DNA of 63,812 nucleotides, counting the filler, from NCBI GenBank assembly GCA_964501035.1. It is 4 parts of 4 records of this genome, joined end to end, with 100 filler letters (N's around TTAATTAATTAA, not from the genome) between each part and the next. Parts side by side here need not be neighbours in the genome. Positions count along the whole stretch, not along the records: positions 52,889 to 63,812 come from CAZCRK010000055.1; 3 more parts are not named here. One strand, 5' to 3'. Within the stretch, counting starts at the first letter, position 1, and each line of letters opens with the position of its first letter. Positions 806-63,812 of the stretch are shown here, one piece after another. The position numbers and the translations under genes are program-made. The notes under the pieces are model-generated. The model worked only from the letters and a program-made list of their open reading frames with translations, had not been told where the DNA came from and made no database searches.

Positions 806-844
806 GTAGGGAATAACTTGAATAAGGTTGTTCCCTACTTTTTA
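806..844 (+). terminator. Hairpin plus T-tract overlapping the copA stop codon
   Basis: GTAGGGAATAAC...GTTGTTCCCTAC (806-838) followed by a T run on the + strand. Confidence 0.55.
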
Positions 845-17896: not shown

Positions 17897-17996
17897 NNNN
17901 NNNNNNNNNNNNNNNNNNNNNNNNNNNNNNNNNNNNNNNNTTAATTAATTAANNNNNNNNNNNNNNNNNNNNNNNNNNNNNNNNNNNNNNNNNNNN
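17897..17996. other. Artificial contig-join linker
   Basis: Ns flanking TTAATTAATTAA (stops in all frames). Confidence 0.95.
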
Positions 17997-35439: not shown

Positions 35440-35539
35440 NNNNNNNNNNNNNNNNNNNNNNNNNNNNNNNNNNNNNNNNNNNNTTAATTAATTAANNNNN
35501 NNNNNNNNNNNNNNNNNNNNNNNNNNNNNNNNNNNNNNN
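35440..35539. other. Artificial contig-join linker
   Basis: Ns flanking TTAATTAATTAA. Confidence 0.95.
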
Positions 35540-45800: not shown

Positions 45801-46167
45801 ATCACAATATTCAGGCAATATATTGTCTGCAAATATTGATTCTTTTGGTGATTTTTCAGTGTGGGTAAATACTGATTTGCTCGAACCGTTACCCGAAGAA
45901 TTTTCAATTTTTCCATCATATCCAAATCCATTTAACCCAAGTTTAACTATTCCATATTCTTTACCTCATGATGGGAATGTAGAAATTATGGCTTACAATA
46001 TTTTGGGACAACATGTAGCGTCTATTTTGGATGGATTTCAAACTGCAGGGTATAAACAAATAATTTGGAATACAGAAGCCACGCCACATTTGAGTAGTGG
46101 TGTTTATTTTGTACAAATCAAATTTGACAATGTCCATTTAACACAAAAAGTGATGTTCTTAAAATGA
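36895..46167 (+). CDS. Giant acidic surface protein: lamin-tail-like, FN3, PKD-like and many cadherin/tandem-95 repeats, PNPFNP C-terminal sorting tail; spans a 100-N gap
   Basis: ANAGxD...SSDPDGD..YxW PKD repeats; many VNDAP/QNDPP repeats; YPNPFNPS...SSGVYFVQI...QKVMFLK. Confidence 0.85.
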   Translation: MATIYTQLTKKLTNRWVYFLFGVFSSLVFATSPGDIVFTEFFGRSEGELPDYIEVFNTTENDVNLQNWMFRVSHTAQFQIQSSFIISAKSYAFFIGEFGYFSDSEGLIYLPENDPRRDESHDEYLEGFESAEVLENAYWLNFSNLSHASAIIELQDVESQVIDRIEYEGANGEDCTDFCTERGYSTEFKLNPSIENSVELNDDGTNWGISEHQADILFNNSPLVEDGDFGEQEFGSPGYANHTPINLNIFSGTEDGFTIQWENAHTEADVIQFRVYRDGNEIFTQDVSQEMYSDNGLINGVLYEYAVSAQNTEESALSNSIFVSIPTADAGNDIQVNITHDGDPLTVTSDNFSLNGNSSSDLDGDALTYQWKYDENIIGNNSIYSGTLDGAGTHTIVLNVSDMYGSNHSDEVDVIVLEEPNGTPISNAGNDIQASIPHDGDPETVDSEEFILSGENSSDPEDDTLEYEWFFDGESISLNQIYTGTLSGVGDYIFTLVVTDPYGASNSDEVIVTVLEESNTEPIANAGDDLSVQIPHDSDPLTITSENFTLNGELSIDPDGDGLIYEWYYDNELVSNEISLTDSLEGSGDYTFTLIVTDPFGGSNSDDIVITVLDEPNETPQVDAGTLQSVSEGATVQLNGEVLDDDSIDVLIIEWTSDYGGLEYNDNSILNPIFIAPDVLMDDEVLDITCMLTVTDPYGISNSDVVVISVTNINQPPEVTGQVNISIAEDGNREITLDDLTIVDEDSNPEDFVLTLMDGENYSLAEDMVIPASNYFGSLIVPLVVSDGSNSSEIFGLDILVFPVNDAPIIVSVPDTEATEDIEWTHQLVVEDVDDTEFLYELIQGPVDFVVTETGLLSWTPTEGITTSGEVIVLAKDGGENGASPDTLEFEISVVQVNDAPIAQSQVVETPLNTSIDIILFGEDVENDNLTFHIQQLTENGIILGSPPNITYSPDTDFICNDTIKYYIVDDGLTNGQLDPQQSELAEVVIVVGNCNNIQPEIVSTENLNVDEDSSILLELSHITVVDEDNNWPDDFTLVINEGENYSVVENTVYPDENYNGLLLIEIQVDDGQPINSLSESVFLSLTVTPINDAPIIEEIENQEINEDEDFTWVIEAFDIDEDELEYSVETDESSTLNIVENVLTLTPLIDWNGEIQVSITVSDSELTDEALFTLTVNPQNDAPVIEGQVELSILEDNTLSLNLLNLDVNDVDNVFPNEHDLLVLEGDNYSFSDLDITPDLNYFGDLVVNVLVDDNENENNESEIYSLSIDVTAVNDPPILTEIEDQTSFEDIPFEYVLEAQDVDNVNLEFSGGVDGNALFEIDDQLLRITPNQDFTGDILVSITVTDSEFEDSDEFVLTILEGNDPPVLAPIIDANIDEDTXXXXXXXXXXXXXXXXXXXXXXXXXXXXXXXXXXMASESFTLTVLAQNDPPVLAPIIDANIDEDTFYEVELSATDPDSEDLIFSAGIDGNANAYVEGTLLSVYPDENFHGDIIVSVVVSDGFLEDSQEFTLIVNSINDPPVLESTSNQTIDEDHTYSQLIIVEDPDTENLNISGGVDGNSTFSISENILLITPDENWYGDILVNLSVSDGEFIDQDDFVITVIPVNDAPIIDIIEDQSIFEDSTFEYELSVNDVDGDEIVFTAFVDGNATPIVNGDSLFVYPDENYFGDILVTIYADDEQERDMASESFTLTVLAQNDPPVLDTIENQSIDEDTVLNQVFSAFDEEDDPLEFSVNILDGNAIAEVEENMAIFTPSLDWNGLVEIEVIVNDGLSSDTTYFTLTVIPVNDYPIFTLSEYDITVNEDDSELVNNVTIVDYIPSDEINQEVHYSLTPDESDLLDIEFNQATGECNISLIPNANGAEMFTITADDGQDENNMYSQEFMLTIYSVNDAPELISFELANGLTSVQEDSLSVELEVSYFDIDSDPILNELPFDLNELNWSYFSDHETALTLNSGGIFTIDSLKSNWNGIDNILVIVNDGRSLSDSIIFELTVDALNDPISILDVSFENNLTSIPEDTSFVSFNILLEDVDSNPQLNQQSEDPLDNFNLTWNIDDTDVTYVSILDSLVNNENGNLTQYYMLDSLLQNWNGHDTLNILVQDGTYSDSIQFPIHVTGVNDAPEIDTIYFENDISFIYEDTSDVGFVIDIYDVDSDISLNFDGDNPLDNMDSFVWSINESEYIHLSEVGIINGENSLLNMNFEIDSLLSDWNGYDTIQFALEDGIFSDTIDFPIFVEQVNDYLILDSVYFEGHISWIPEDTSNVLFHVEYRDVDMNSLLNYAPDSNAETVVWGISNTEQIQTDALESISISNDIALKNYSITTLLANWNGHDTLNILVQDGTYSDSIQFPIHVTGVNDAPEIDTIYFENDISFIYEDTSDVGFVIDIYDVDSDISLNFDGDNPLDNMDSFVWSINESEYIHLSEVGIINGENSLLNMNFEIDSLLSDWNGYDTIQFALEDGIFSDTIDFPIFVEQVNDYLILDSVYFEGHISWIPEDTSNVLFHVEYRDVDMNSLLNYAPDSNAETVVWGISNTEQIQTDALESISISNDIALKNYSITTLLENWNGHDELNILVQDGTYSDSIQFSIHIKQRNDSLIQSFEVIPDFISYNPDPTTFYSDTLENTKLFYRYPKDIDNNSILESLPLQFKWSRDELLDIDTDTFLNNDTLLSLYYRLELSSDDTNFIVVKDSIEDKKFSGKDSVTVNIDLLHEFLGYKDDYYIPDNSNGSVYLDTLGTTEYSWRVTAMNYWRDDLENDPEYISVSDTLNFYIDLKEPIIDYAILQNEVYSEYYDVYMLTTEEVIADSTDLIIVDENDGVNNQEFNLNAPLETNIYSITTSFPSAGLFTYNFDGWDHARNNFNSTQKFGFQYIAPSELSRYSSPSGFAIIELISHANENQPILIYESEIDLSLSRSNSTQVSPTVSILYKNTESMSDAKVEFDLTVFLNEDIPYWQYQIMQFIDGEWSDIESQYSGNILSANIDSFGDFSVWVNTDLLEPLPEEFSIFPSYPNPFNPSLTIPYSLPHDGNVEIMAYNILGQHVASILDGFQTAGYKQIIWNTEATPHLSSGVYFVQIKFDNVHLTQKVMFLK
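41041..41140. other. Scaffold gap in a collapsed intragenic repeat
   Basis: 100 N; left flank recurs at ~41181-41234 and right flank recurs at ~41948-42000. Confidence 0.85.
43161..44660 (+). repeat. 711-bp (237-aa) near-identical tandem duplication, about 2.1 copies
   Basis: AAACTGGAATGGGCATGAT at 43161, 43872 and 44583; identical antisense ORFs at 43278 and 43989 are 711 bp apart. Confidence 0.93.
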
Positions 46168-46886: not shown

Positions 46887-46987
46887 TTTAATTCCATATA
46901 CAAATTGTTACAGAATTTTACATTCAAACAGTTATGGATTAGATGTATAATTATACTGGTAATACCAAACGAATTAAGGATTTTATT

Positions 46988-48559
46988 ATGAGATTTATAC
47001 TTTTTTTATTGATTTTCTCGCTTCCACTTCTTGCGGAAACAGATTTGCAAAAGGAACTTCCAATTGGACTTACTGAAGATGAATTGCAAAATTTACACAT
47101 TATCAATGAAATGGGTCGAGAAACTGATCCCCCTCAATATCCCGTTCGAAATATTGCAGAATTTGAACCCATGCAAGGTGTGTTGATTCGATATCCATTT
47201 GGTATCTCAACATCATTTATTAGAGAAATGGCTGAAGATGTAATCATTTATTGTTTAGTTTCATCTTCTCAACAAAATAGCGCATATAACTCAATGTCGA
47301 ATGCTGGGGTTGATATGAGCCAAGTTGAGTTTATTGTTGGTTCTACTGATAGTTATTGGACGCGTGATTATGGCCCATGGTGGGTAGTGGATGGCAATAA
47401 TGATGTATCCGTCGTTGATCATACATATAATAGACCTCGACCAAACGACAACCAAGCACCACAAAAGATGTCAGATTATTTATCAACACCCTATTTTGCA
47501 AGTGATATCATAACTGCAGGGGGTAATTACATGACTGATGGGTATACCATTGGTGCATCGAGTAATCTCATATATGAAGAAAATCCAGATTTAACAGATT
47601 CTCAAGTGAATCAAATTATGCTAGATTATTATGGAATTTCCAATTATATGGGCATAGATGACCCCAATAATACATACATTGACCATATTGATTGCTGGGG
47701 TAAGTTTTTGTCACCTAGTAAAGTATTAATTCGTTCTGTGCAAAATTCACATGCACAATATGATGAAATAGAAGAAGTGGCTGAGTTGTTTGCAAACAGT
47801 TTGAATACATTTGGTGAACCATGGGAAGTATTTCGTGTTTATACTCCACAAAACCAACCCTATTCCAATTCATTAATTTTAAACAAGAAGGTATTTGTGC
47901 CTATTATGAACAGTTCATACGATGACGATGCACTCGCATCTTATGAAGAAGCAATGCCAGGTTATGAAATCATTGGTGTTACGGGTTCATGGCAATCCAC
48001 AGATGCTTTGCATTGTAGAACAAAGGGCATTCCCGATTTAGAAATGCTTCAAATCTTTCATAATCCAATAAATGATCAAGACAATCCACAAGAAAATTTT
48101 GAAGTACAAGCAATTATTAATGATTTATCTCAAGCCGGACTTATATTCGATGAATTGAAAGTATTTTGGAAGAATCAAACAATGGACGATTATGAATCAA
48201 TTAATTTAGATTATTGTGTCGATGATATTCCTAATTGTTATGTTGCACTTCTTCCAAATCAAACTGAAGATGGAAATGTACAATACTTTATCCAAGCTAT
48301 TGATTTAACAGGCCGAGTTGAGAACCTTCCCATGGCAGGTTATTTTGACTTTGATGTAGTTGGAGGACTTCCCACTCAACAGGGTGATGTTAATCAAGAT
48401 TCTGCATTAAATGTATTAGATATTGTACAAATTGTGAACAATATTTTAGGTACCAATGAATTTTCAGAATATCAAATGCAGTTGGCGGATATGAATTCAG
48501 ATAATATTGTTAATATTCTTGACGTCATTTTACTTGTAAATATTATCATAGGAGATTAG
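46988..48559 (+). CDS. Secreted peptidylarginine/agmatine deiminase-family enzyme with C-terminal dockerin-like domain
   Basis: AAGGA RBS and signal peptide at 46988; AEFEP, WTRDYGP, GGN, HID, YSNS, LHC; GDVNQDSALNVLDIV...ADMNSDNIVNILDVI. Confidence 0.88.
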   Translation: MRFILFLLIFSLPLLAETDLQKELPIGLTEDELQNLHIINEMGRETDPPQYPVRNIAEFEPMQGVLIRYPFGISTSFIREMAEDVIIYCLVSSSQQNSAYNSMSNAGVDMSQVEFIVGSTDSYWTRDYGPWWVVDGNNDVSVVDHTYNRPRPNDNQAPQKMSDYLSTPYFASDIITAGGNYMTDGYTIGASSNLIYEENPDLTDSQVNQIMLDYYGISNYMGIDDPNNTYIDHIDCWGKFLSPSKVLIRSVQNSHAQYDEIEEVAELFANSLNTFGEPWEVFRVYTPQNQPYSNSLILNKKVFVPIMNSSYDDDALASYEEAMPGYEIIGVTGSWQSTDALHCRTKGIPDLEMLQIFHNPINDQDNPQENFEVQAIINDLSQAGLIFDELKVFWKNQTMDDYESINLDYCVDDIPNCYVALLPNQTEDGNVQYFIQAIDLTGRVENLPMAGYFDFDVVGGLPTQQGDVNQDSALNVLDIVQIVNNILGTNEFSEYQMQLADMNSDNIVNILDVILLVNIIIGD

Positions 48560-48560
48560 T

Positions 48561-50774
48561 ATGCTGAAATCTATAATTATCTTGATGTTAACACAAATAC
48601 TTTTTTCTGCTGAAGTGTTCAAGCAGATTCGCATTGAACCCATTGATGAAACCACCATTTCTACACTTCAATCTATAGGGATTGACTTAGACCATGTCTA
48701 TCAGAAAAAGGGTGTATTTATTGAATTTGCGGTATCAGAATCTGATATCACTCGTATCGAAGATAGAAATATTTCCTTTGAGGTAGTTCACGAGGATTTA
48801 CAGTCATTTTATGAGCATCGTTTAACTACGGATTATACTCGAGATTTTGGAACTGGTTCAATGGGTGGCTATTATACATTTGAGGAAATTGTTGACCATC
48901 TAAACGAACTGCATAACGATTATCCTAACTTAGTCAGTGAAATCCAATCGATAGGACAAACACTTGAAGGTCGAGAAATATGGTCTGTTAAACTTAGTGA
49001 TAACCCCAACGTAGATGAAGATGAACCCGAAATGCTGTATATTGGATTACATCATGCACGTGAGCCAATGAGTTATATGAATTTGTTTTATTATATGTAT
49101 TGGTTAACTGAAAACTATGGAACAGATCCCGAAGCAACTGCACTTCTTGAAAATAGAGAACTCTGGTTTATTCCAGCTATGAATCCAGACGGATTGGTGT
49201 ATAATCAACAAATTGCACCAAACGGTGGGGGTATGCAACGCAAAAACCATCGTGAAACCTGTTCGCAAGACTGGGATGGTATTGATCTAAACCGGAATTA
49301 CAGTTTTATGTGGGCATACGATGATGATGGTTCAAGTCCATACGGATGTGACCAAACCTATCGTGGAACCGAACCCTTTTCAGAACCCGAAACAGAAGCA
49401 GTCAAAAATTTTATTGAATCGCATGATTTCCCAATTATTTTATCCTATCATAGTTATGGAAATTTACTCATTCACCCATTTGGATACATACCTGGACTTT
49501 TACCTCCAGAACCCGATTTAACAATTTTCAGAGAGTATGGAAATGAAATGGTCAAATATAACCATTATTCAATGGGAACGGGTATTGAAACTGTGGGCTA
49601 TACTGTGAATGGAGAGGCAACTGACTATTATTATGGTGAATATGGAATTTATGCCTACACACCTGAAGTAGGTGCATATTATGATGGTTTTTGGCCATCA
49701 TCTGATCGGATACTTCCATTAGCAGAGGAAAATTTACACCCAAATCAATTTTCAGCATGGATGGTTGGTGCAGGTTATACTGCATCCCTTGAATATGATA
49801 ATGAATATTTTGAATTTGGTCAAACTTATTCGATTGATGTAAACATTTTTAATCAGGGGTTGGGTGAATCCAATGGAGATATTGATGTGAATATTTCTTC
49901 ACCATTACTTGATGAAGATTTGACATTTAACTTAAATCCCTTAAATGGTCGCCAATCGGCAGCAATTCCTATCGAGTTCAGCATATCAAATACATATCAA
50001 AATGGGGATATTGTGGATATTACTGTTTCGATGTCGGATAATACCAATTACACTTTTGAAAATGTCATATCCATCACCATTGGCGAGCCAGTGTTACTGT
50101 TTTCTGATGGTGCAGAATTTGGATTAGTAAATTGGGAGACCAATGCATGGGGAACAACATCCGATGCGTATAATGGAAATTCCGCATTTACGGATAGTCC
50201 ATTTGGAATATATGGTGCAAATGCAGTTAGTTATTTGCAATTAGCTGAACCCTTAAACTTATCAGATGTATCTACAGGATATATTTCTTATGCTGCAAAA
50301 TGGCAAATTGAAACCAGTTGGGATTGGGCACAAGTTGAAGTCTCCACGGATAATAATAATTGGATTCCCTTACAAGGTGAACTCATGAATGGGGGAACTG
50401 GTCAAGGAGTACAATTTACCGACGAGTATGGTTATGATGGAATTTCTGATTGGGTGACTGACCAGGTTTCCATTGCATCACTTGCAGGTGAGGAAACGGT
50501 ATGGTTTCGGTTTAGTTTGAGTTCCGATGGTGGAGTAGAACGTGATGGAATATACATTGACAATATCGGAGTATATGCCTATCAACAAACGGCACAAATT
50601 GGAGATATCAATACCGATGGAAATATAGATGTTTTGGATGTGGTACAAATGGTTCAAATTATTATAGGTGCAGCAAATCCAACTCCAGAGCAATTCAGCC
50701 TAGCAGATTTAAATACAGATAATACAATCAATGTACAAGATATTGTTCTTTTAGTGAATCTGATTATTGGATAA
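48561..50774 (+). CDS. Secreted M14 carboxypeptidase (carboxypeptidase T-like) with beta-sandwich domains and C-terminal dockerin-like domain
   Basis: HHAREP, RKN, DLNRNY, SYHSY, TPEVG; GDINTDGNIDVLDVV...ADLNTDNTINVQDIV. Confidence 0.9.
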   Translation: MLKSIIILMLTQILFSAEVFKQIRIEPIDETTISTLQSIGIDLDHVYQKKGVFIEFAVSESDITRIEDRNISFEVVHEDLQSFYEHRLTTDYTRDFGTGSMGGYYTFEEIVDHLNELHNDYPNLVSEIQSIGQTLEGREIWSVKLSDNPNVDEDEPEMLYIGLHHAREPMSYMNLFYYMYWLTENYGTDPEATALLENRELWFIPAMNPDGLVYNQQIAPNGGGMQRKNHRETCSQDWDGIDLNRNYSFMWAYDDDGSSPYGCDQTYRGTEPFSEPETEAVKNFIESHDFPIILSYHSYGNLLIHPFGYIPGLLPPEPDLTIFREYGNEMVKYNHYSMGTGIETVGYTVNGEATDYYYGEYGIYAYTPEVGAYYDGFWPSSDRILPLAEENLHPNQFSAWMVGAGYTASLEYDNEYFEFGQTYSIDVNIFNQGLGESNGDIDVNISSPLLDEDLTFNLNPLNGRQSAAIPIEFSISNTYQNGDIVDITVSMSDNTNYTFENVISITIGEPVLLFSDGAEFGLVNWETNAWGTTSDAYNGNSAFTDSPFGIYGANAVSYLQLAEPLNLSDVSTGYISYAAKWQIETSWDWAQVEVSTDNNNWIPLQGELMNGGTGQGVQFTDEYGYDGISDWVTDQVSIASLAGEETVWFRFSLSSDGGVERDGIYIDNIGVYAYQQTAQIGDINTDGNIDVLDVVQMVQIIIGAANPTPEQFSLADLNTDNTINVQDIVLLVNLIIG

Positions 50775-50782
50775 ACCATTGG

Positions 50783-51045
50783 AAGTTTGAAGGGAGAAGT
50801 TTGAAGTGTGAAAAAAACTTCAATATCCAAATCCAANNNNNNNNNNNNNNNNNNNNNNNNNNNNNNNNNNNNNNNNNNNNNNNNNNNNNNNNNNNNNNNN
50901 NNNNNNNNNNNNNNNNNNNNNNNNNNNNNNNNNNNNAGAAGTGTGAAGTTTGAAATGAGAAACAACTCCACTTTTAACTTTTCACTTTATCAACTTTCAA
51001 CTTTTTAGACTTTCAACTCCTTTTCACCCTTCACCCTTCAAACTT
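50783..51045. repeat. Intergenic heptamer-based element with 17-bp terminal inverted repeats; contains a 100-N gap
   Basis: AAGTTTGAAGGGAGAAG (50783-50799) versus CTTCACCCTTCAAACTT (51029-51045), 16/17 complementary. Confidence 0.7.
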
Positions 51046-51113: not shown

Positions 51114-52547
51114 ATGAAAAAAATAAATATAATGATATTTATCCTTACTTCGTTTTTACTCTCACAAGACGTTGCAGGAAATTATAAACTATCAGGTATT
51201 AATGCAACCTATCACGATATTGCCAGACAAACTGTACCTTTACTTGTAAGCGATATCTATGGACAGGATATCCAAATTTCCATTGGTGCAATCAATCAGG
51301 GTGATATTTTCAGTTCTACATACAACGGCCCCCATGGTGAGATGTATCTTACGCTAGCAGGTGTGAATCTAAACATAAATTTGTATGATGATGGCACAGG
51401 TCATATTGCCGAAGGTAGTTATTATCCGATGGTTGAGTTTAATGGAGACTGCTATTCAAATTTAAATATTTTACCCATAACGGATAATCTCATATATTCT
51501 TCAAATTTGAATGCAGGTTTATCTTGGCCAACGATGAATGTTATTGGTTTACCTTCACACAATCCCTATGCTTTTGATGAAAGCACATTTGGAAATGTGG
51601 GGTCATTTTCGCTTACTCAATCAGTTGTTTTTGATTTTTTTCCAGCGATACCTACGCAAACATCTATTCCCTTTCCGATTAATTTTGAAAGTAGCCAATA
51701 CCCAGAATATAGTTTTATTCCACCTGGATATACCCTACCAGGAGTTGTGGGCGGATTTGTCATAAAAGGGGATGCAAACGAGAGTGTTTTGGGTGATGAT
51801 TTTGATGGTGATGGGATTCAAGAACCCAATACTCCGTGGGATATTACTCTAGAATGGCATGCCATTGATGGATTGATTTCTGAGAGTGGATTGGGTAATT
51901 TTATAGGTGAAGATGAAGATGGTGATGGCACCGATTTTGATGCTATTTTTGGCTTACCGTTTATTTCTGCAGTATTTGTAAATCCCAGCCCAGATTGTGG
52001 TGGACTAAATTACCCCATTTATGGTGATGCATCCATTCTACCTCTTTTATCCGAAATCAATATTCATGCAGATTGCATTGATACTGAAGATGGATTAGCC
52101 AATGATGGTTATGTTATGGATGCATCTTTGGAAAATTGGGGATACTTTTTGACCTATAATGCATCCCAGTTTCAAAATTGTTTAGCCGAAAATGGGGGAG
52201 ACCCAACCCCATGCTTAGGTTTTATGGTAGATGATAGTGACCATGATTTTAATGGTACCGATGGTAAATTGGTGATGCGTTTTACTCCAACCTGTATTCC
52301 GAAATTTAATGTACGACAACTCACAACTGAATTTTATGAAATTGGATCAGAAGCATGTAACCATGAAGGGGATGTAAACTCTGATACGATTGTAAATGTT
52401 TTGGATATTGTCTTGGTTGTTGGTGAAATTATTGGTAGTAATGATCCCTTATCGGGTTCCGCATTTTGTCAAGCCGATGTTAATGCAGATTCAATTATCA
52501 ATGTGCTTGATATAGTAGCACTTGTAAATCAAATCATTGGGAATTAA
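51114..52547 (+). CDS. Secreted protein of unknown function with C-terminal dockerin-like domain
   Basis: Signal peptide; DxDGDG loops; paired cysteines; GDVNSDTIVNVLDIV...ADVNADSIINVLDIV. Confidence 0.8.
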   Translation: MKKINIMIFILTSFLLSQDVAGNYKLSGINATYHDIARQTVPLLVSDIYGQDIQISIGAINQGDIFSSTYNGPHGEMYLTLAGVNLNINLYDDGTGHIAEGSYYPMVEFNGDCYSNLNILPITDNLIYSSNLNAGLSWPTMNVIGLPSHNPYAFDESTFGNVGSFSLTQSVVFDFFPAIPTQTSIPFPINFESSQYPEYSFIPPGYTLPGVVGGFVIKGDANESVLGDDFDGDGIQEPNTPWDITLEWHAIDGLISESGLGNFIGEDEDGDGTDFDAIFGLPFISAVFVNPSPDCGGLNYPIYGDASILPLLSEINIHADCIDTEDGLANDGYVMDASLENWGYFLTYNASQFQNCLAENGGDPTPCLGFMVDDSDHDFNGTDGKLVMRFTPTCIPKFNVRQLTTEFYEIGSEACNHEGDVNSDTIVNVLDIVLVVGEIIGSNDPLSGSAFCQADVNADSIINVLDIVALVNQIIGN

Positions 52548-52788: not shown

Positions 52789-52888
52789 NNNNNNNNNNNN
52801 NNNNNNNNNNNNNNNNNNNNNNNNNNNNNNNNTTAATTAATTAANNNNNNNNNNNNNNNNNNNNNNNNNNNNNNNNNNNNNNNNNNNN
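52789..52888. other. Artificial contig-join linker
   Basis: Ns flanking TTAATTAATTAA. Confidence 0.95.
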
Positions 52889-54823: not shown

Positions 54824-55426
54824 ATGCAACTAGGATTATCGCCAAAAAAACAACGATTTGTAGATTTTATACGAGACTTTACAAAGAGAAATGAAAGGCC
54901 ACCAACCTTTGTAGAGATTATGGATGGCTTACATTTTCGATCGCTGGGTACGGTAAATTGGTATGTTCAAGAATTAGAAAAAGAAGGTGTTATTTGTAGG
55001 GAAAAAGGATATAATGGTAAACGTGCCCTCTCTGTTTTTGAAAAGAAAATGAATAATACACTTCCACTTCTTGGTTTAATTGCTGCAGGCCACCCACTAG
55101 ACGTATTTGAAAATACTGATCAAATAGAAGTACCACCTTCGTACGCAAATTCGAGCAATTATGTATTAAGAGTAAATGGTGAATCTATGAAAGATGATGG
55201 TATTTTAGATGGAGACCATGTTATTATCAAGAAAACCGAAATAGCAAATTCAGGCGATACCATTGTAGCTTATGTAAATGATGAAGCCACCTTAAAACAA
55301 TATATTCCTAAAAAGAACCATATTGAACTCCACCCAAAGAATCCACAGTTTAAACCAATTAAAGTAGATAAAAATGATGATTTTAGAATCGGTGGAATAG
55401 TTTTAGCTGTATTTCGAAGTTTTTAA
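54824..55426 (+). CDS. lexA: SOS repressor LexA
   Basis: N-terminal wHTH (PPTFVEI), IAAG cleavage site, VNGESM catalytic Ser, EATLK catalytic Lys. Confidence 0.92.
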   Translation: MQLGLSPKKQRFVDFIRDFTKRNERPPTFVEIMDGLHFRSLGTVNWYVQELEKEGVICREKGYNGKRALSVFEKKMNNTLPLLGLIAAGHPLDVFENTDQIEVPPSYANSSNYVLRVNGESMKDDGILDGDHVIIKKTEIANSGDTIVAYVNDEATLKQYIPKKNHIELHPKNPQFKPIKVDKNDDFRIGGIVLAVFRSF

Positions 55427-55583: not shown

Positions 55584-56132
55584 ATGAAAAAGTTAGCAAT
55601 TTTTATCGTATCACTTTTGGTAATTACACTGATTGGATGCCAGAATGAAACTAAAGTCCAAACTAAAATTGAGACAAGTCAACTCAAACGAGTGGGCGGT
55701 CCAATTACAACTTCAAATGAATCAAACATATCTTCAAATGAGTTAGGTATAGAATCTATTACTGAGTTAAAAGATGGGTCATACGAGATTAATGTATATG
55801 CTCTCAACATTGACCCAATTGCAGGCATTCAATTTGAATTGATACCCAACAACATTTTTGAAATTAAGGAAATTTATGGTGGTAGGTGTGACAAATCTGG
55901 ATTTATGTTAAAATCGAATGAAAGAGGTGTTATGCTTGGATTTTCAATGCAGGGAAACATAGTAGAACCCTCTAATAATTCAACAAAGAGTAGTAACTTG
56001 TTGTTTTCTTTAAAAGCAAATTTAATTTCAACTAAATCACAAGAGACCTTATCACTTGCCCCTGTGTTAGCAGGGCAAAAAGGTAAAACATTATCTGTAG
56101 ATTCCGTTCCATATACATGGATAAAAGGATAA
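55584..56132 (+). CDS. Lipoprotein with a single cohesin-like module
   Basis: Lipobox LIGC; IAGIQFEL...GG...SGF...SN...MLGFSMQGNIV aligns by eye with module 1 of the downstream giant ORF (IGGFQFIL...GG...ASF...SN...ILGFSMTGDVI). Confidence 0.7.
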   Translation: MKKLAIFIVSLLVITLIGCQNETKVQTKIETSQLKRVGGPITTSNESNISSNELGIESITELKDGSYEINVYALNIDPIAGIQFELIPNNIFEIKEIYGGRCDKSGFMLKSNERGVMLGFSMQGNIVEPSNNSTKSSNLLFSLKANLISTKSQETLSLAPVLAGQKGKTLSVDSVPYTWIKG

Positions 56133-56218
56133 TGTATCAGTTTGTAATTTTTAATATTTAAATGCATGAACTTGTTTAAATTTATTTCTAATTGTTTAAT
56201 CTAAAAGTGGAGAAAAAA

Positions 56219-59200
56219 ATGAAATCAATAATCAAATTAACCCTAATTACAATATTATCAATTGGTTGGATGTCCGCCCAAGATGTTACATTAAGTATAT
56301 CTGATGTGGTGGACAATACAGCTAGTATTTACATTGAAAGTACAGAAGATATTGGAGGTTTTCAGTTTATATTAGATGATAATCCTAATATTCTTTCTGC
56401 AACAGGTGCATCGGGTGGATTGTCTGCAGATGCTTCATTTACAATTAGTTCAAATGTTGATGGCTTAATCCTTGGCTTTAGTATGACGGGTGATGTCATT
56501 CCAGCTGGTTCTGGCAATTTAATTAATGTTTCATTTGATATGGATGGTGATTATACTGTTTTAGAAATTATTGATCCTATTATTGCCGATGCATTAGGGA
56601 ATACCCTAGAAACTGAAACAGGACCTCCCTTTATAATTGGTACTCCACCAGATCCAGAAATTACTTTGCATTCCCCTACTGATGGTGAATTGATATATGG
56701 AAATACGATTGACGTTTCTGTTTCTGCCAATTATTATAATGATGGTGATCACTATCATGTATACTTAGATGGTGCTTCCTTAGGAATGTTTTACAGTAAT
56801 TCTTTTTCATTTGAAGCAGAATACGGTGAACATTCACTTCAAGTAATAATTGCTGATGCTTCTCATATTGAGTATAGTGACCCTGCATCGTCGGTTACCA
56901 TTACATTTACAAATGACGAAGAACCCCCTATAGAAGGAATTGCGTTGTATATTGGTGATTTAGTTTTGGATGCTGGTAATTCAGGTGAACTTGATGTTTC
57001 CCTTACAAATTCAGAGGATATCATAGGGGGCTTTCAGTTAAAATTAATTGATTGGCCAAATAGTGGTGATTTTGTAAATGTAACCACAACCGAACGAACA
57101 ACTCAATTTTCCACGAGTTTCAATGAACAACCTGACGGATCTGTCATAATTGTTGGATTTGATATGACGGGTCAAGGAATTGCTACTGGAGAAGGTGCAA
57201 TATTATCGTTAACCTATGAATCCACAAGTATCTACTCTGCAGATGTTGAACTTTATTTAGATGAAAATCAATCTATTTTGTCAGATAGTTTTGGGACTCC
57301 ACTTGAATTTACACAAGTACCCGGTATGATTACAGTAAATGGTGAAACACCACCACCATTATTTGCTCCAGAAAATCTATCTGTAGTAGGTGGCTTCCAA
57401 ATGACAAATTTAGAATGGAGCCATCCTGATCCTACCTCTGTTGTGGGATATTACATTTTTAGAGATGGTGACTTAGTTGGGGATGTATCAACAACTAACT
57501 ATGCAGATGTTGGATTAGAAAATGAAGTAGAATACTGCTACACAGTAAGTGCATATAACGATATGGTTCAATCAGATGAATCCAATTCTGCATGTGCGAC
57601 TACTGAAGCTCAATATTTCGAAGAACCTCAAAATTTAACTGCTACAGAAAATGGTTTAGAGGTATTTTTAGATTGGCAAACGCCACCAAGTGCTATAGGT
57701 GTTGGGGATGATTGCGATTTAGAAGATGGAAGTGCTGGATATATAGATTGTTCTGGTGTTTGCTTTGCAACTGGTTTAGCTGATTCATGGATTGGCGATG
57801 GTTTTTGTGATGGAACTGCAGCTGATTATGGTGTTAATTTTTCATGCCCCGAATGGGATTGTGATGGATGTGATTGTGCCGGATTAGGTCAAAATAGTGA
57901 TGAATGCATAGAAGTATGTGGTTCAATACAAAATAATCACGACCATGGTGATGAAACTAAGGAAATGGCAGTAGGCACATATCCTGTTCAAAGTAGAGAC
58001 CTTGAAGGATATGAAATTTATAGAGATAACCAACTTCTCGATTATACAACAGATACAGAATATACAGATTCGGATGGATTGAGTTATGTTACTGAATTTT
58101 GCTATAACGTTACTGCAGTGTATGATGAAGGCACGTCAGGATTTTCCAATACTGCATGTGCAACTCCTCAATTAGAAGGTCCGTTTGGATTATCTGCTAT
58201 GGGCACAGGTAGTTTTATAACGTTAAATTGGAACCCTACCCTAGAAAATGATCAATCATATTTTAATATTTATCGCGATGATGAATTATTAACGACATCA
58301 ACTGAACCGTTTTATGAAGACTTTGATACAGAATTAGGTGTTGAATATTGTTATTTCGTTAAAGCATACTACGATGGTATTGGAGAATCTCCGTCAACAA
58401 ACACCTCTTGCACTAGTTGGAATATCTATCCACCATCTGATATATCTGCAACCGCTGGTGATGGTTTTGTTGATTTAGCATGGGATGAACCCGTTGGTGG
58501 TGAAGAGGTTAGTTTTCAATATGATGATGGAGTACTAGCAAATGCATTTTATTTTTTTGACACCTATGAATTAGGGTATGCTCACGGTATTCGTTTTGAT
58601 GTGGGTACTGAATTTGATATACTATCCGCTTCAGTAAAAATTTTATCAGAAGGTGATGAATATTGGCCATGGCCCGATGCTACTCATGGACCAGTAAGAA
58701 TTTTAATATTTGATGATAATAATGGTATTCCTGGTAATGTTTTACACGAGGAAGAAGCAGTTGCAAGTGATGGATGGGCGACGATTCAACCCAATATCAA
58801 TGGTTTAAGTGGTTCGTTTCATGTAATTGTTACACATGCTGATGGCTGGGCTGACCCTGAAGGGTTTGGTGTAGATGGATTTGTAGATTTTCCAGATAAT
58901 ATGATGACTCTAAATGGTGATGGCAACTGGTATTCTGGTGATATTTTGGGATACGGTGGTGATTATATGATGGCATCTCAAGTTCTTGCATATGGATCTG
59001 TTGGTGTTGTTGAGTTAAACAACACTCTACCAACCCTATCAGCAAGTGATAACTCTGCAACTCATTCAGTTCATGATGGATCTTTGACAGGTCAACATAG
59101 TATTGAATCCCATCCGTTTTATATAAACGCGGAAAATTCTAGAGAATTACTATCATTCGATATTTTCAGAGATGGTGAGTTTATTGTTAACATTGCGTCA

Positions 59201-62200
59201 GATATATTTGAATATCATGATGCCCCGCTTACCAATATGACAGAGTATTGCTATACATTAGTTTCCAATTATGATGAAGGAACCTCAGAAACATCAGATC
59301 CTGTTTGTGCAACTCCAAATCCTGGACCACCAGCATCAGATTTGATTGCTACCGATTTGGGTGGTACAATAGGTCTTGAATGGACAAATGCACCTAGTCT
59401 TGAATTATTAGACTACCAAATTTATCGAGATGGTGAAAATATTGGAAGCACAACAGAAACATCATTCATTGATTCTGGAGATATTATTGCAGGTATTGAA
59501 TATTGTTACGAAGTACGAGCGAATTATCCATCAGGAGAAACATTTCCAACCAATACTGCGTGTGCAATTTATGTATTAGATCCACCAATTGGAGTTATGG
59601 CTTCAGGAGATAATGATGCACAAAATATTACAATTACATGGTCTGCACCGGGTACAGAAGGGTCTGGGGAAACCATTGAAGATCCATTATTTGTCTCTGG
59701 AGTTCCATTTGAAACCTTTGGAACCACATTAGGTTTTGTGGATGATTACGATGAAGAGTGTCCTTATACTGGAAGTACATCTCCAGATGTAGTGTATATG
59801 TGGTCAGCAACACCTGGAAATTACAATTTAGATATTTGTGATTCAGATTATGATACTAAAATTTATCTATATGATGAAAACCAAACAAATCTCGGATGTG
59901 TAGATGATTCATGTAATGACCCTGCTGGAAATCCGTTTAGATCAAACCTAAATGTATCTATAACTGAAACCGGAACATATTATGTTGTTGTCGATGGGTA
60001 TGGTGGAGATGCAGGAAATTACCATTTAACAATCGAAGAAGGATTTTTTATTTCTGAACATAGTGATACTCAACCCCTAAAAGATGGTAGTAATATGGTT
60101 GAATATGTTAATCCTAATCCATCAATAGATGATAATATTCTTACGCGTGATTTACTCGTATATAGGGTATATAGAGATGATGAATTGCTTGCAGAAGTTG
60201 ATACAGAAACGTTTGAATATGTCGATGAAACATCTGAACATGATATTGTATATTGCTACACAGTAAAAGCTGTTTATGATGATGGGGAATCGATTAATTC
60301 TAATGTATCATGTACTGAATGGATTTTACCGCCTGTGACCGATTTTGAAGCTGTAGGTACAAATGGACAAATAGAGTTATCATGGGTGTCCCAATCTGTT
60401 AATACTTCATCGTTCACAATATTAAAAGATGGAACAGAATTAGCAGTTGTAACCGATACTTTTTACAATGACAGTGCTACGACACCGGGAACAGAATATT
60501 GTTATTCAGTTACTGCAAACTATGATATTGGTGATTCTGACCCTTCTGAAGAAGAATGTACAATGTGGGAAACATTACCCCCTGCTGATGTTACTGCAGT
60601 GGGTGCTGACGGAGTAGTTCACCTTGAATGGACGGACCCTCCTGAAGGTGGGACTGGAGGAATTGGTGATGAATGTTTAACTGAAACTGGCACACCTGGT
60701 TTCATAGACTGTATGGGCTTATGTTTTGACGCAGGCTTACTCGGATGGCTAGGTGATGGATTATGTGATGATGGTTCTTGGGGCGTTTATTTTGATTGTG
60801 ATGAATGGAATTGGGATGATGGCGACTGTGTTCCGGGTGTAATGGAATATAATCATGATTTAAATGCTAAATCTTACGTTGAATCTAGTCATCCTCAATC
60901 ACCAATATCTCGTTCTCTTGTTGGGTTTGATATTTATAGAGATAATCAATCCATTGCTTCTGTTGATGCAAACACGTATGAATATGATGATCTCGATGTT
61001 CAAAATCTTACAAACTATTGTTACACCATTGTTGGTGTATATGAAGAGGGAGAATCAGAACATTCAGAGGAAGCATGTGCTACGCCCATACCTGGAATTG
61101 CTCCAACCAACTTATTTGCTATTGGAGAATCTGGAAATATAAACCTTGAATGGGTCGCTGGTTCTTTAGACGTAATTGAATATATAGTGTACAGAGATGG
61201 AGTACAATTGGCAACCACCAATGATAATATATACACAGATACAGAGGCAGAACACGATGTTGAATATTGCTATACCGTTTCAGCAATGTATCCTTCTGGT
61301 GAATCATTACCAACAAATGAAGCATGTGCAATGTGGGTATTGGCGGCACCATTATCGGTATCTGCAGTAGGTGGAAATGGATTTGTGCAATTAGATTGGA
61401 CAGAACCAGGTGTTAGTGTTTGTGCAGATGAAGTGATTCCATCCCTACCGTTTACAGCACTCGGATCAAATGTAGGAACAGGTAATGATTGGTTGGTGCA
61501 AGGTTCTGAAGGTGAAGATTATGCATATTTGCTAAATGTTTCTTCTCCAATTACAATAACGGTATCATTATGTAGTCCGAATACAATGTATGATACAAAG
61601 CTTGAGATTTTTACTGCAGATCAAGAATGCAATGAAACAAGTACGGGTTATTATATAGATGATTTCACATGCAATGATTCCCCAGTAAGTAGTTTGGCTT
61701 CAACACTTGAAAATGTAAGCTTAGAACCAGGGCAATATTACATTGTGGTTGATGGGTTTGGTGGAGGAACTGGAGATTTTGAAATTTCAGTAACTCAAAC
61801 TGGGCTAACGTCATCTACACCAAATGATATTCATGAATCGATTGCATTGGAATCTGAAAAATCTGAAACTGAAATACCATTTGAAGATTGGTTGATAGCA
61901 GATGGCTCTCAAAATATAAATGAATCTAGAAACCTGACTGGCTTTGATATTTACAGAGATGATACATTTATTACATCGGTTGAACCAAACGTATATTCTT
62001 ACACCGATTTAGGTTTAGAAAATGGTACTGAGTATTGCTATTTCATAATTGCAACATATGATGAAGGTGATTCTCAACCTACTCCAGAGGTTTGTGCGTC
62101 ACCTGATGCCGGACCAATGTGTCCACCAGAACATCTAACAGTTATAGGTGAAAATGGTGCCACTGAAATCCATTTAGACTGGGATGCACCAGACCCTCTT

Positions 62201-63812
62201 TGTGATGATGGAGGTGGAAATGGTGGTGGAGATGGCGATATTGGAACGGCATGTGAAGGTTGTGAAGGAGAATCTTGTATTTACGATTGTGAAATGCAAT
62301 GTGTTGATGAAAACACAGCATTATCATGGATTGGTGATGGGTACTGTGATGATGGAACATGGGGTATTTACCTAGATTGTGCTGAGTTTGAATTTGATTA
62401 TGGTGACTGTGATGGTGAAGTGGAGCATCAAGATCATAAAGAAATATATGTTGTCAATCAAGAAGAACCTGTACGGTTAAATGGGTTCTCAATTTATCGT
62501 GATAATATTCAAATTGCTGAAGTTGCACCTGAAGTAACGGAGTATGATGATGCCACAGTAGAATTTAGTACGGAATATTGTTACAAGGTGAAAGCATTGT
62601 ATGATGATGGTGAATCGAATCCTACCAATACAGAATGTGCTTCATTAACAGACCCCGCAGATTTCTCCATTGTACAAATGGGATCTGGTGGAGTTGAATC
62701 AGCTGGTGTCATATCTATATCAATTGATTTGGAAAATCAGTTTGAAGTTGCAGGATTCCAGTTTAACATTTCTGATACTCCAAATTTACTCACAACTATT
62801 GAGGTAAATACAACTGAGCGAACAGATGATTTTACTGTGGAATACAATGAACAACCCGATGGTTCAGTAATAGTTGTTGGTTTCAATATGATTGGTGGAG
62901 TTATTGACATTGGGTCGGGTTCAATTCTCGAATTATCATTCCAAGCATCCTCTGTTTTAGAGGTTGAGGAAGTACTATTAAGTATTTCTGAATTTTATTT
63001 AGGTGATGAATTGGGAGGGGATATACCTGCATTTGCAAATGATGGAGTTGTTACTATTTCACCTGCTGGTGCATCCACTTTATCTGTGAATACAACAGAA
63101 TTCGTTGTAGGTGAACAAGGCGAAGTTGCAATTTCTTTAACAAATGAAATTGACATTGCAGGATTCCAACTTAACTTAACTGATACACCAGATATTTTAA
63201 GTTATGTGGATGTTGCAGTAACAGAACGAACTGAAGGTTTTATGGTTACAGCAAATGAAACTGACAATGTGATTACATTGATTGGGTTTGATTTGAATGG
63301 TGGAACCATTGCACCAGGTGAAGGTCCAATTGTAACCTTTACATTTGATGCTGATTTACCAGGTGAAACAGTATTAGATTTGTCTGCAGTGATTCTATCA
63401 GACACTGAAGGTACACCTGTGGCAGTCATGTTAGAGTCTGGGACTGTGATTGTAAATGATGAAGCCCCTGCACCTGAATTGCAACATTTTACTGACTTAC
63501 CGCTTGAAACAGGTGAATCTTCTCTCATCATTATTGAGGATGTTTCTGGTTTGGAAATTGGTGATGAAATTGGTTTGTTTGATACCAATGGAATAAATAT
63601 GGATGTTACTGCTCCAGCTAGTTGTGATGAAACACCACTCGGTCCAATTTTAGTTGGTGCTGGAGTATGGACAGGTGAACAACTTGAAATAGTAGGTGTT
63701 GGAGCATTAGATCTATGTGATTTTGCAGGTCCACAGTTATCTGGTTATGTTGATGGAAATGCGGTCACATACAAAGTATGGAAAGCAAGTGAAGATGCAG
63801 AATACAATGCAG
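56219..63812 (+). CDS. Giant secreted scaffoldin-like protein (>2531 aa, runs off window): 4 cohesin-like, 11 FN3-like, 3 LNR-like Cys-rich and 2 PPC-like modules; absent from the ORF track
   Basis: GGAG RBS, ATG at 56219, signal peptide MKSIIKLTLITILSIGWMSA; frame open to the window end; GFQ cohesin-like motifs near 56354, 57026, 62750 and 63158; YCY FN3 motif 11 times; W[IL]GDG.CD three times. Confidence 0.85.
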   Translation, partial: MKSIIKLTLITILSIGWMSAQDVTLSISDVVDNTASIYIESTEDIGGFQFILDDNPNILSATGASGGLSADASFTISSNVDGLILGFSMTGDVIPAGSGNLINVSFDMDGDYTVLEIIDPIIADALGNTLETETGPPFIIGTPPDPEITLHSPTDGELIYGNTIDVSVSANYYNDGDHYHVYLDGASLGMFYSNSFSFEAEYGEHSLQVIIADASHIEYSDPASSVTITFTNDEEPPIEGIALYIGDLVLDAGNSGELDVSLTNSEDIIGGFQLKLIDWPNSGDFVNVTTTERTTQFSTSFNEQPDGSVIIVGFDMTGQGIATGEGAILSLTYESTSIYSADVELYLDENQSILSDSFGTPLEFTQVPGMITVNGETPPPLFAPENLSVVGGFQMTNLEWSHPDPTSVVGYYIFRDGDLVGDVSTTNYADVGLENEVEYCYTVSAYNDMVQSDESNSACATTEAQYFEEPQNLTATENGLEVFLDWQTPPSAIGVGDDCDLEDGSAGYIDCSGVCFATGLADSWIGDGFCDGTAADYGVNFSCPEWDCDGCDCAGLGQNSDECIEVCGSIQNNHDHGDETKEMAVGTYPVQSRDLEGYEIYRDNQLLDYTTDTEYTDSDGLSYVTEFCYNVTAVYDEGTSGFSNTACATPQLEGPFGLSAMGTGSFITLNWNPTLENDQSYFNIYRDDELLTTSTEPFYEDFDTELGVEYCYFVKAYYDGIGESPSTNTSCTSWNIYPPSDISATAGDGFVDLAWDEPVGGEEVSFQYDDGVLANAFYFFDTYELGYAHGIRFDVGTEFDILSASVKILSEGDEYWPWPDATHGPVRILIFDDNNGIPGNVLHEEEAVASDGWATIQPNINGLSGSFHVIVTHADGWADPEGFGVDGFVDFPDNMMTLNGDGNWYSGDILGYGGDYMMASQVLAYGSVGVVELNNTLPTLSASDNSATHSVHDGSLTGQHSIESHPFYINAENSRELLSFDIFRDGEFIVNIASDIFEYHDAPLTNMTEYCYTLVSNYDEGTSETSDPVCATPNPGPPASDLIATDLGGTIGLEWTNAPSLELLDYQIYRDGENIGSTTETSFIDSGDIIAGIEYCYEVRANYPSGETFPTNTACAIYVLDPPIGVMASGDNDAQNITITWSAPGTEGSGETIEDPLFVSGVPFETFGTTLGFVDDYDEECPYTGSTSPDVVYMWSATPGNYNLDICDSDYDTKIYLYDENQTNLGCVDDSCNDPAGNPFRSNLNVSITETGTYYVVVDGYGGDAGNYHLTIEEGFFISEHSDTQPLKDGSNMVEYVNPNPSIDDNILTRDLLVYRVYRDDELLAEVDTETFEYVDETSEHDIVYCYTVKAVYDDGESINSNVSCTEWILPPVTDFEAVGTNGQIELSWVSQSVNTSSFTILKDGTELAVVTDTFYNDSATTPGTEYCYSVTANYDIGDSDPSEEECTMWETLPPADVTAVGADGVVHLEWTDPPEGGTGGIGDECLTETGTPGFIDCMGLCFDAGLLGWLGDGLCDDGSWGVYFDCDEWNWDDGDCVPGVMEYNHDLNAKSYVESSHPQSPISRSLVGFDIYRDNQSIASVDANTYEYDDLDVQNLTNYCYTIVGVYEEGESEHSEEACATPIPGIAPTNLFAIGESGNINLEWVAGSLDVIEYIVYRDGVQLATTNDNIYTDTEAEHDVEYCYTVSAMYPSGESLPTNEACAMWVLAAPLSVSAVGGNGFVQLDWTEPGVSVCADEVIPSLPFTALGSNVGTGNDWLVQGSEGEDYAYLLNVSSPITITVSLCSPNTMYDTKLEIFTADQECNETSTGYYIDDFTCNDSPVSSLASTLENVSLEPGQYYIVVDGFGGGTGDFEISVTQTGLTSSTPNDIHESIALESEKSETEIPFEDWLIADGSQNINESRNLTGFDIYRDDTFITSVEPNVYSYTDLGLENGTEYCYFIIATYDEGDSQPTPEVCASPDAGPMCPPEHLTVIGENGATEIHLDWDAPDPLCDDGGGNGGGDGDIGTACEGCEGESCIYDCEMQCVDENTALSWIGDGYCDDGTWGIYLDCAEFEFDYGDCDGEVEHQDHKEIYVVNQEEPVRLNGFSIYRDNIQIAEVAPEVTEYDDATVEFSTEYCYKVKALYDDGESNPTNTECASLTDPADFSIVQMGSGGVESAGVISISIDLENQFEVAGFQFNISDTPNLLTTIEVNTTERTDDFTVEYNEQPDGSVIVVGFNMIGGVIDIGSGSILELSFQASSVLEVEEVLLSISEFYLGDELGGDIPAFANDGVVTISPAGASTLSVNTTEFVVGEQGEVAISLTNEIDIAGFQLNLTDTPDILSYVDVAVTERTEGFMVTANETDNVITLIGFDLNGGTIAPGEGPIVTFTFDADLPGETVLDLSAVILSDTEGTPVAVMLESGTVIVNDEAPAPELQHFTDLPLETGESSLIIIEDVSGLEIGDEIGLFDTNGINMDVTAPASCDETPLGPILVGAGVWTGEQLEIVGVGALDLCDFAGPQLSGYVDGNAVTYKVWKASEDAEYNA

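Follow-up and report, generated by a model that had tools for sequence, protein, structure and literature searches.

A large cohesin scaffoldin and a peptidase-rich set of dockerin proteins in a Marinimicrobia genome

The scaffoldin locus

The DNA analysed here, referred to below as the window, is 63,812 bases long and consists of four contigs (C31, C32, C33 and C55) of one assembly, which totals 1,874,623 bases in 167 contigs and is estimated to be 95.7% complete with 1.33% contamination. It encodes members of a candidate cohesin-dockerin system. A very large scaffoldin open reading frame (ORF) and a small lipoprotein upstream of it, both with cohesin-like modules, are located on C55 (52889-63812), and six ORFs that an initial annotation of the window had named as dockerin-bearing lie on C31, C32 and C33. 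The features of the C55 locus are as follows (aa, amino acids).

55584-56132, + strand: lipoprotein of 182 aa with one divergent cohesin-like module; lipobox LIGC
55728-56129, + strand: cohesin-like module of the lipoprotein, located with module profiles
56192-63811, + strand: scaffoldin ORF, non-catalytic, 2540 aa; TTG start at 56192, first ATG at 56219; 3'-open at the contig end
56276-56653, + strand: cohesin-like module 1 (E 1.3e-30, profile from non-window modules)
56930-57355, + strand: cohesin-like module 2 (E 5.8e-15, same profile)
57356-62656, + strand: spacer of ~1770 aa with fn3-like (fn3, RGI_lyase beta-sheet), PPC-like and Cys-rich modules (Pfam)
62657-63067, + strand: cohesin-like module 3, the module modelled (Pfam Cohesin 22.8 bits; AlphaFold2; Foldseek)
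63065-63472, + strand: cohesin-like module 4 (E 1.3e-18, profile from non-window modules)
63473-63811, + strand: 'X' domain, first ~113 of ~135 aa, cut by the contig end

The scaffoldin has a signal-peptide-like N-terminus, near which two of its cohesin-like modules are found; the other two lie toward the contig end, beyond the long spacer. Pfam scans recognised no catalytic family anywhere in the protein, the spacer included. The Cys-rich modules of the spacer, present in three copies with a motif like C..GDG.C, occur also at the start of an ORF on C32 (17999-18100) and match no Pfam family. The N-terminus of the lipoprotein, lipobox included, reads MKKLAIFIVSLLVITLIGC; such signal peptides end in [LVI][ASTVI][GAS]C, and a crude lipobox scan flags the ORF too. 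No SLH or sortase-type anchor was found by Pfam on either the scaffoldin or the lipoprotein of the window.

The 'X' domain follows the last cohesin in homologous scaffoldins, where a second domain of ~60 aa comes after it, and it recurs in cohesin ORFs on C9, C14 and C21. Its copies (63473-63811 in the window, L001:10814-11230, L016:823-1632, L022:607-1419 and one on L044) are 41-74% identical to one another and share the motif GDEIGLFD...LVGAGVW. It matches no Pfam family, its AlphaFold2 (AF2) model reaches a predicted local distance difference test (pLDDT) value of only 67, and no match to it was found in the PDB at E <= 0.001.

A search with the two-module protein found one relative only, in a genome of the same genus (L001, 80% identity), where a LexA-like gene, a cohesin lipoprotein and a scaffoldin stand in the same order. 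That scaffoldin is truncated as well, ~80 residues further on. In the window the LexA-like repressor gene (54824-55426, + strand) lies directly upstream of the lipoprotein-scaffoldin pair; the ORF at its position in the relative is of similar size, at 213 aa, and its identity as LexA is assumed.

Cohesin identity of the modules

An alignment of the four scaffoldin modules with that of the lipoprotein covers ~130 residues; identity to module 1 is 27-33%, and ten columns are invariant among the five (G, Q, P, F, N, GF, G, L, G). To avoid circularity, a profile was made in which every module came from another contig of this genome. It recovers all four scaffoldin modules with domain E-values from 1.3e-30 to 5.8e-15 (module 3: 1.5e-16) and the lipoprotein module at E 6.1e-12; the latter is also found, at E 5.5e-14, with a profile built without it. 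The initial annotation had described a four-module ORF running to the window end next to a one-module lipoprotein, and both were recovered in this way, with boundaries that agree within a few tens of bases.

The Pfam Cohesin family (PF00963, curated cut-off 24.1 bits) matched one window module only, module 3, and below the cut-off (22.8 bits, E 1.1e-4); it matched neither modules 1, 2 and 4 nor the module of the lipoprotein. Other evidence was therefore used, namely profiles, paralogues and structure. Paralogues encoded elsewhere in this genome score above the cut-off (an ORF on C9 at 56.2 bits, one on C29 at 31.8 and one on C52 at 26.5), as do four of the five scaffoldin homologues scanned. 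When searched against the PDB, a profile of the five window modules matched 16 sequences at E <= 1, 14 of which are cohesins, with 5n5p_A the best (E 1.7e-4), and a 37-module profile gave a single match, the same cohesin (E 6.1e-6).

The AF2 model of module 3, computed from the 37-module alignment, is all-beta, with a pLDDT of 95.6 and a predicted template modelling (pTM) score of 0.86. Foldseek returned 132 PDB matches to it at E <= 0.001, and those listed were all cohesins. The best is the type I cohesin 4dh2_C (E 2.5e-11, template modelling (TM) score 0.83), with another type I cohesin, 2vn5_A, also near the top; the non-cellulosomal cohesin of Archaeoglobus fulgidus (2xdh) follows at E 3.8e-10, TM 0.80 and 20% identity. 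Across solved cohesins the TM scores are 0.77-0.84 at sequence identities of just 15-20%. The window modules are predicted to adopt the cohesin jelly-roll, a nine-stranded beta-sandwich, and at the level of prediction the cohesin fold claimed at the outset holds. We considered and rejected the identification of the modules as fn3 or immunoglobulin-like (Ig) spacers, because the structural matches are to cohesins specifically.

Dockerins of the window

A dockerin is made of two tandem segments of ~22 residues, each with a calcium-binding loop (D-x-N-x-D...D) followed by a helix. All six ORFs that had been named for a duplicated motif of this kind contain a match above the Pfam Dockerin_1 cut-off (PF00404, 22.9 bits) in the genome scan, at 26.5-38.3 bits. 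In the protein scan five of the six exceed it, and the sixth (18119, within 17999-22204) scores 21.0 bits.

3025-6249, - strand: M6 (immune inhibitor A-like) peptidase with an FG-GAP propeller, C-terminal dockerin at 3031-3219 (38.3 bits)
6398-8392, + strand: M14 carboxypeptidase, C-terminal dockerin at 8198-8389 (36.8 bits)
17999-22204, + strand: 5'-open ORF with DUF1565 and Big_9, internal dockerin at 21437-21619 (26.5 bits in the genome scan)
46943-48559, + strand: member of the Porphyromonas-type peptidyl-arginine deiminase family, C-terminal dockerin at 48365-48556 (37.8 bits)
48561-50774, + strand: M14 carboxypeptidase with an InhA-like MAM domain, C-terminal dockerin at 50583-50771 (38.1 bits)
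51114-52547, + strand: secreted protein of 477 aa with no family besides a C-terminal dockerin at 52350-52544 (31.5 bits)

The window dockerins agree with the type I definition in both their PF00404 match and their two tandem Ca-loop-helix segments. In an alignment of 59 dockerins of this genome, which displays the duplicated loop-helix, D19, D42 and D53 are invariant, and D8, N10, D12, N44 and D46 are each kept in 90% or more of the sequences. The ORF at 17999-22204 also carries the sorting tail of the type IX secretion system (T9SS), Por_Secre_tail, at 51 bits. Pfam confirmed every enzyme named among these proteins by the initial annotation, that is, the M6 endopeptidase, the two M14 carboxypeptidases and the PAD_porph deiminase.

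Genome-wide inventory and cargo

The six dockerin ORFs originally counted all hold the domain, but the count is a large underestimate: across the 1.87-Mb genome there are 67 PF00404 matches in 64 ORFs. The dockerin ends within 20 aa of the C-terminus in 46 of the 64. One match, at G000:C39:4522-4695, is broken by an in-frame TAG and may represent a broken gene or a sequencing error. The module profile identified 32 cohesin-like modules in 16 ORFs, including a second giant cohesin protein with six modules on C9 and four-module ORFs on C87 and C130. Three ORFs have both cohesin and dockerin and look like adaptors (L031:1-1161 and L031:1962-3578 on C52, and L003:1-3741, which is C1_66824). Together the cohesin and dockerin ORFs number 77 and occupy 161 kb, or 8.6% of the assembly. 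Nearly all of those with an intact 5' end start with a hydrophobic, signal-peptide-like stretch by a crude hydropathy test. Half of the cohesin ORFs (8/16) are 3'-truncated by a contig end (on C9, C19, C21, C43, C55, C87, C126 and C130); repeated modules seem to break short-read assemblies, so that cohesin counts in such metagenome-assembled genomes (MAGs) would be lower bounds.

All 64 dockerin ORFs were scanned against Pfam at E <= 1e-4, or <= 0.01 for the window ORFs. A peptidase catalytic domain is present in 17: six C25 (gingipain-like), four S8, two M14, one each of M6, C10, M1 and trypsin-like, and one S9, which is weak at 24.2 bits. Other enzyme-like domains occur in 12: arylsulfotransferase-like in four, and one each of PAD_porph, PNGase F C-terminal, Endonuclease_1, Exo_endo_phos, Metallophos/purple acid phosphatase, PETase-like, CotH and a weak Cu2_monoox_C. 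A glycoside hydrolase family was found in none of the 64, so that what had been noticed for the window enzymes holds genome-wide, and a true cellulosome was rejected on this ground. The description 'proteolytic' is right insofar as peptidases are the largest class and too narrow in view of the 12 other enzyme-like ORFs, whose domains are of deiminase, glycanase, nuclease, phosphatase, esterase, sulfotransferase-like, kinase-like or monooxygenase-like type.

The arylsulfotransferase-like beta-propeller domains of four dockerin proteins (loci L028:10239-13014, L029:1-2715 and L036:2226-3668), one of which also has leucine-rich repeats (LRRs), are an unexpected class. Domains of protease-inhibitor type are found on two dockerin proteins (Kunitz/BPTI and thyroglobulin type 1; L003:4374-5915, which is C1_71197, and L006:1-2268, which is C4_56356), and inhibitors may be placed beside docked peptidases.

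We consider it likely that these proteins form a cell-bound cohesin-dockerin array of mostly peptidase-type hydrolases, a protein-digesting counterpart of the cellulosome. They might instead constitute a general surface-display or adhesion network by which many unrelated exoproteins, such as nucleases, inhibitors, sulfotransferase-like propellers and binding modules, are kept on the cell or on particles, peptidases being no more than the largest class that can be annotated. Such a network would suit the fact that peptidases make up just 17 of the 64 dockerin ORFs, next to 12 with other enzyme-like domains and 17 with no other family, and that further dockerin ORFs carry FG-GAP, PKD, LRR, lamin-tail (LTD), Sortilin, Kunitz or thyroglobulin-1 domains; the three ORFs with both modules also suggest chains or networks rather than one defined complex. 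Peptidases are nevertheless by far the largest recognised class, and they make up a serial set of endopeptidases, M14 carboxypeptidases and an M1 aminopeptidase. We regard the network as unlikely; it overlaps with the peptidase-rich array, from which it differs in emphasis only.

Host lineage and distribution

By its nearest named homologues the genome is that of a member of the Marinimicrobia. Homologues of the adenylosuccinate lyase on C32 are 81-84% identical to it, and the three organism-bearing names among the top 120 are all Candidatus Marinimicrobia, a name also borne by homologues of the scaffoldin. The origin first suggested for this DNA is supported by both genes.

The scaffoldin and the dockerin partners named at first lie, as was pointed out at the time, on different contigs (C55 against C31, C32 and C33), and the tetranucleotide profile of C55 is comparatively atypical, the fourth least typical of the 67 contigs of at least 8 kb (r 0.943, median 0.990). 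This raises the question of a binning artefact in which C55 and the dockerin contigs come from different organisms. We find that very improbable, because cohesin and dockerin ORFs share a contig in five cases (C1, C9, C14, C43 and C52), and because both module types are expanded in every genome of the family that was sampled. The contamination estimate is low, an orthologous locus exists in a genome of the same genus, and the scaffoldin and the C32 housekeeping gene share their named lineage. About 70% of C55 is one repetitive acidic gene. The assumption that the contigs belong to one genome, on which the initial annotation depended, is probably right.

Among 300 other sampled genomes of the phylum, a dockerin match was found in 180, often in 1-10 copies, and a cohesin-profile match in 151. 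In the window's own family both module types are present in 14 of 14 genomes, with at least 20 dockerin matches in all 14 (78-181 first-look candidates) and at least 14 cohesin matches in 12. Three more families of the order have a like pattern in most genomes, whereas a family with genomes of ~1 Mb (f7) has neither dockerin nor cohesin in any of 30; since relatives are not independent and match counts are minima, these figures describe a pattern and not a statistic.

Predicted binding

One pair was submitted to complex prediction: module 3 with the dockerin from the M14 carboxypeptidase encoded at 48561, using an alignment for either partner and 2 Ca. The complex score is 0.42 (runs 0.42, 0.46 and 0.37), against 0.02 for the best of three controls; contacts are at least 98% the same between runs, and the partner has a pLDDT of at least 89. 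Of 157 solved complexes 116 reached the mark, as did 2 of 215 mismatched pairs. At scores of 0.60 or less, those reaching it include only 18 of the 157 solved complexes and both of the passing mismatches. Because cohesin-dockerin complexes have already been solved, the pass may reflect likeness to them, and we treat it as weak support for binding.

Many isolated non-cellulosomal modules of these families are suspected of not pairing. It is conceivable that the modules described here are true homologues that pair no longer, in which case the dockerins would be independent calcium-binding tags for stabilisation or adhesion, and the cohesin-like modules would be spacers of Ig-like type. Consistent with that are the sub-threshold Pfam scores of the window modules, the weak complex prediction, and the wide occurrence of dockerin matches in the phylum, often in small numbers per genome. 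Other observations weigh against a loss of pairing. The two module types expand in the same families (14/14 genomes with both in f1, 0/30 with either in f7), the positions of the Ca-loops and helices are strongly conserved in the 59 dockerins, and it is difficult to account in another way for proteins that have several cohesins and no catalytic domain. We judge it quite improbable that the modules have ceased to pair.

Anchoring and export

A search with the C-terminal 392 residues of the scaffoldin gave 14 large homologues with 30-64% identity over the best local alignment. All 14 have cohesin-like modules, from 2 to 13 of them. Most of the largest (e.g., P0001-P0006 and P0008) have cohesins at both ends, as the window scaffoldin does, and others (e.g., P0011) have them in one long series. 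Two of the 14 bear the NCBI name Candidatus Marinimicrobia, and one of these two is named 'T9SS type A sorting domain-containing protein'. Five homologues were scanned with Pfam, and four have Por_Secre_tail at the end; the fifth is labelled partial. The last 126 aa encoded in the window align at 45-65% to a domain ~420 residues before the C-termini of P0001, P0003 and P0004. From this alignment and the tails of the homologues, the window gene probably lacks ~420 C-terminal residues, including a T9SS sorting domain.

No overlap between the end of C55 and any other contig was found with k = 21-127. Several 5'-open fragments with a T9SS tail at their end (C135, C146, C81 and C9_36823) are 25-28% identical to the homologue C-termini, and none is assignable to the window gene. 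In two independent metagenome studies the scaffoldin gene is present in pieces of 4.7-4.9 kb and ~2 kb at >99% identity, with 6-22 differences each. All of these end near 63,790, at which point short contigs of greater depth take over. A break at this point fits a repeat; the domain at the end of the window recurs on C9, C14 and C21. Among public sequencing runs, none of RNA is listed as containing the sequence.

The genome has 37 Por_Secre_tail (PF18962) matches and a SprA_N match. Four cohesin ORFs carry the tail (C9_36823, C14_1280, C29_10180 and C1_66824), and in ten ORFs a dockerin is followed by it. The SprA_N match (G000:C12:28161-29980) spans two open frames of 1487 and 857 aa, possibly through a frameshift or an assembly error, or because there are two genes. 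The genome also has two secretin genes, both unassigned.

In the array we favour, the window ORF would be the first ~2540 of roughly 2950 residues of an enzyme-free scaffoldin whose missing C-terminus is most likely a T9SS sorting domain, by which it would be tethered to the outer membrane. The upstream lipoprotein, with its single divergent cohesin, may be a second kind of membrane anchor. The enzymes, mostly dockerin-ended, would be exported by signal peptide, and the cohesins of the anchored scaffoldins would receive their dockerins. The outcome would be an array of hydrolases, bound to the cell, for breaking down proteins and other polymers of marine organic matter in its immediate vicinity.

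Several points weigh against this interpretation. No window module reaches the Pfam Cohesin cut-off, the pairing has weak support in silico, and the C55 profile is atypical for the assembly. No carbohydrate-binding module (CBM) or other substrate-binding module was recognised on the scaffoldin by Pfam. The balance of the cargo is only partly known, as 17 of the 64 dockerin ORFs match no other Pfam family. The C-terminus of the scaffoldin is absent from the assembly, and its T9SS tail is deduced from homologues at 31-44% identity. In 46 of the 64 dockerin proteins there is no T9SS tail, and in a cell with two membranes a signal peptide alone would take them to the periplasm only. The genome has no match to GldM_1st (PF12081), a family that may be too divergent, so that its absence is not evidence against a T9SS.

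In this lineage the dockerin may have replaced the T9SS tail, so that enzymes without a tail are carried through the translocon as passengers of the scaffoldins. They would meet tail-bearing cohesin scaffoldins in the periplasm and end up anchored by proxy, and one secretion signal would serve dozens of interchangeable enzymes. We think this rather unlikely.

Other features of the window

The contigs are joined by N44-TTAATTAATTAA-N44 at 17897-17996, 35440-35539 and 52789-52888. C33 has two internal gaps of 100 N (41041-41140 and 50837-50936), one of which falls inside an ORF of 3090 aa (36895-46167, + strand). This ORF encodes a T9SS-sorted giant with lamin-tail, PKD, Big_9 and cadherin-like repeats and a Por_Secre_tail; the Pfam scan found neither dockerin nor cohesin in it. 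At the start of the window a tyrosine recombinase of the phage integrase family (1-621, - strand), truncated by the contig end, adjoins a heavy-metal P-type ATPase (835-3021). C31 also encodes TonB_C (12873-13496) and ExbB (14327-14932), as recognised by Pfam. A TonB system with a TonB-dependent receptor had been put forward as an uptake route. No TonB-dependent receptor family was found by the Pfam scan among the 35 window ORFs of at least 150 aa, and the proposed route thus lacks support within the window.

Comparison with known systems

The system belongs to a kind already proposed, that of non-cellulolytic, peptidase-rich cohesin-dockerin assemblies in Gram-negative bacteria whose scaffoldins are anchored through a T9SS. 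Two other phyla provide precedents for the idea, both of them proposed from genomes. According to the available text of Williams et al. (2021), a cellulosome-like system was inferred from MAGs of another Gram-negative lineage, 'Ca. Stygibacter' (Cloacimonadota), with S8 and C25 peptidases and two glycoside hydrolases (GH18 and GH57) as dockerin-bearing proteins, and with a scaffoldin of 3,755 aa that has a C-terminal sorting domain and CBM2/CBM3 (PMC8542988). By comparison with what that text describes, the set reported here has no glycoside hydrolase among 64 cargo ORFs and no recognised CBM, is much larger, has a scaffoldin with cohesins at both of its ends and an extra cohesin lipoprotein, and occurs in a different phylum (PMC8542988).

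The 'planctosome' that Andrei et al. (2019) proposed for polypeptide degradation in freshwater Planctomycetes (Nemodlikiaceae) is, in the available text, likewise a non-cellulolytic cohesin-dockerin assembly with an M14 carboxypeptidase, beside M12B, among its cargo (PMC6461901). It is described there with one anchoring protein, which has a single cohesin and a lamin-tail domain, and one adaptor (PMC6461901); LTD is found here on the cohesin ORFs C14_1280 and C21_19217. The present genome differs in having 16 cohesin ORFs, of up to six modules each, and 64 dockerin ORFs, and in an anchoring that would be by T9SS tail or lipid and not by LTD alone. As far as the available texts of both papers go, the Stygibacter system and the planctosome are inferred from genomes without binding experiments (PMC8542988, PMC6461901). 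A full-text search, with subscription journals and supplements outside its scope, found no paper on dockerins in Marinimicrobia, Marinisomatota or SAR406.

Similarities to the clostridial and ruminococcal cellulosomes (type I pairs, PDB 4dh2, 2vn5 and 1ohz) are the predicted cohesin jelly-roll, the duplicated Ca-loop-helix, multi-cohesin non-catalytic scaffoldins, adaptor-like proteins with both cohesin and dockerin, and single-cohesin anchoring proteins. Unlike in those systems, there is no glycoside hydrolase cargo, Pfam recognises no CBM, SLH or sortase-type anchor on the window scaffoldin and lipoprotein, and the host is a marine bacterium that has a small genome, an outer membrane and a T9SS. 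With regard to the scaffoldin of a cellulosome in the strict sense, the window protein has four cohesins and neither a catalytic nor a CBM family recognised. The A. fulgidus cohesin (2xdh), one of the best structural matches, demonstrates that cohesins are not confined to cellulose degraders. Non-cellulosomal cohesin cases are mostly isolated modules; the set found here is, by contrast, large and co-expanded.

Significance

In the dark ocean, Marinimicrobia (SAR406) rank with the most abundant of the uncultured bacteria, and to our knowledge little is known of how they acquire carbon and nitrogen. What sets the present case apart is the share of the genome devoted to the system, how widely it is conserved within one family of an abundant ocean clade, and the additional lipoprotein anchor. 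The 32 divergent cohesin modules and 64 dockerins, from a Gram-negative source, could serve as orthogonal parts for protein assembly. If the passenger mode of export were true, a system taking up 8.6% of a streamlined 1.9-Mb genome would be the main route of protein harvest in an abundant deep-ocean clade. That share of the DNA and the family-wide expansion suggest that a modular enzyme array bound to the cell is central to the way these bacteria feed, which would bear on the remineralisation of sinking and dissolved protein.

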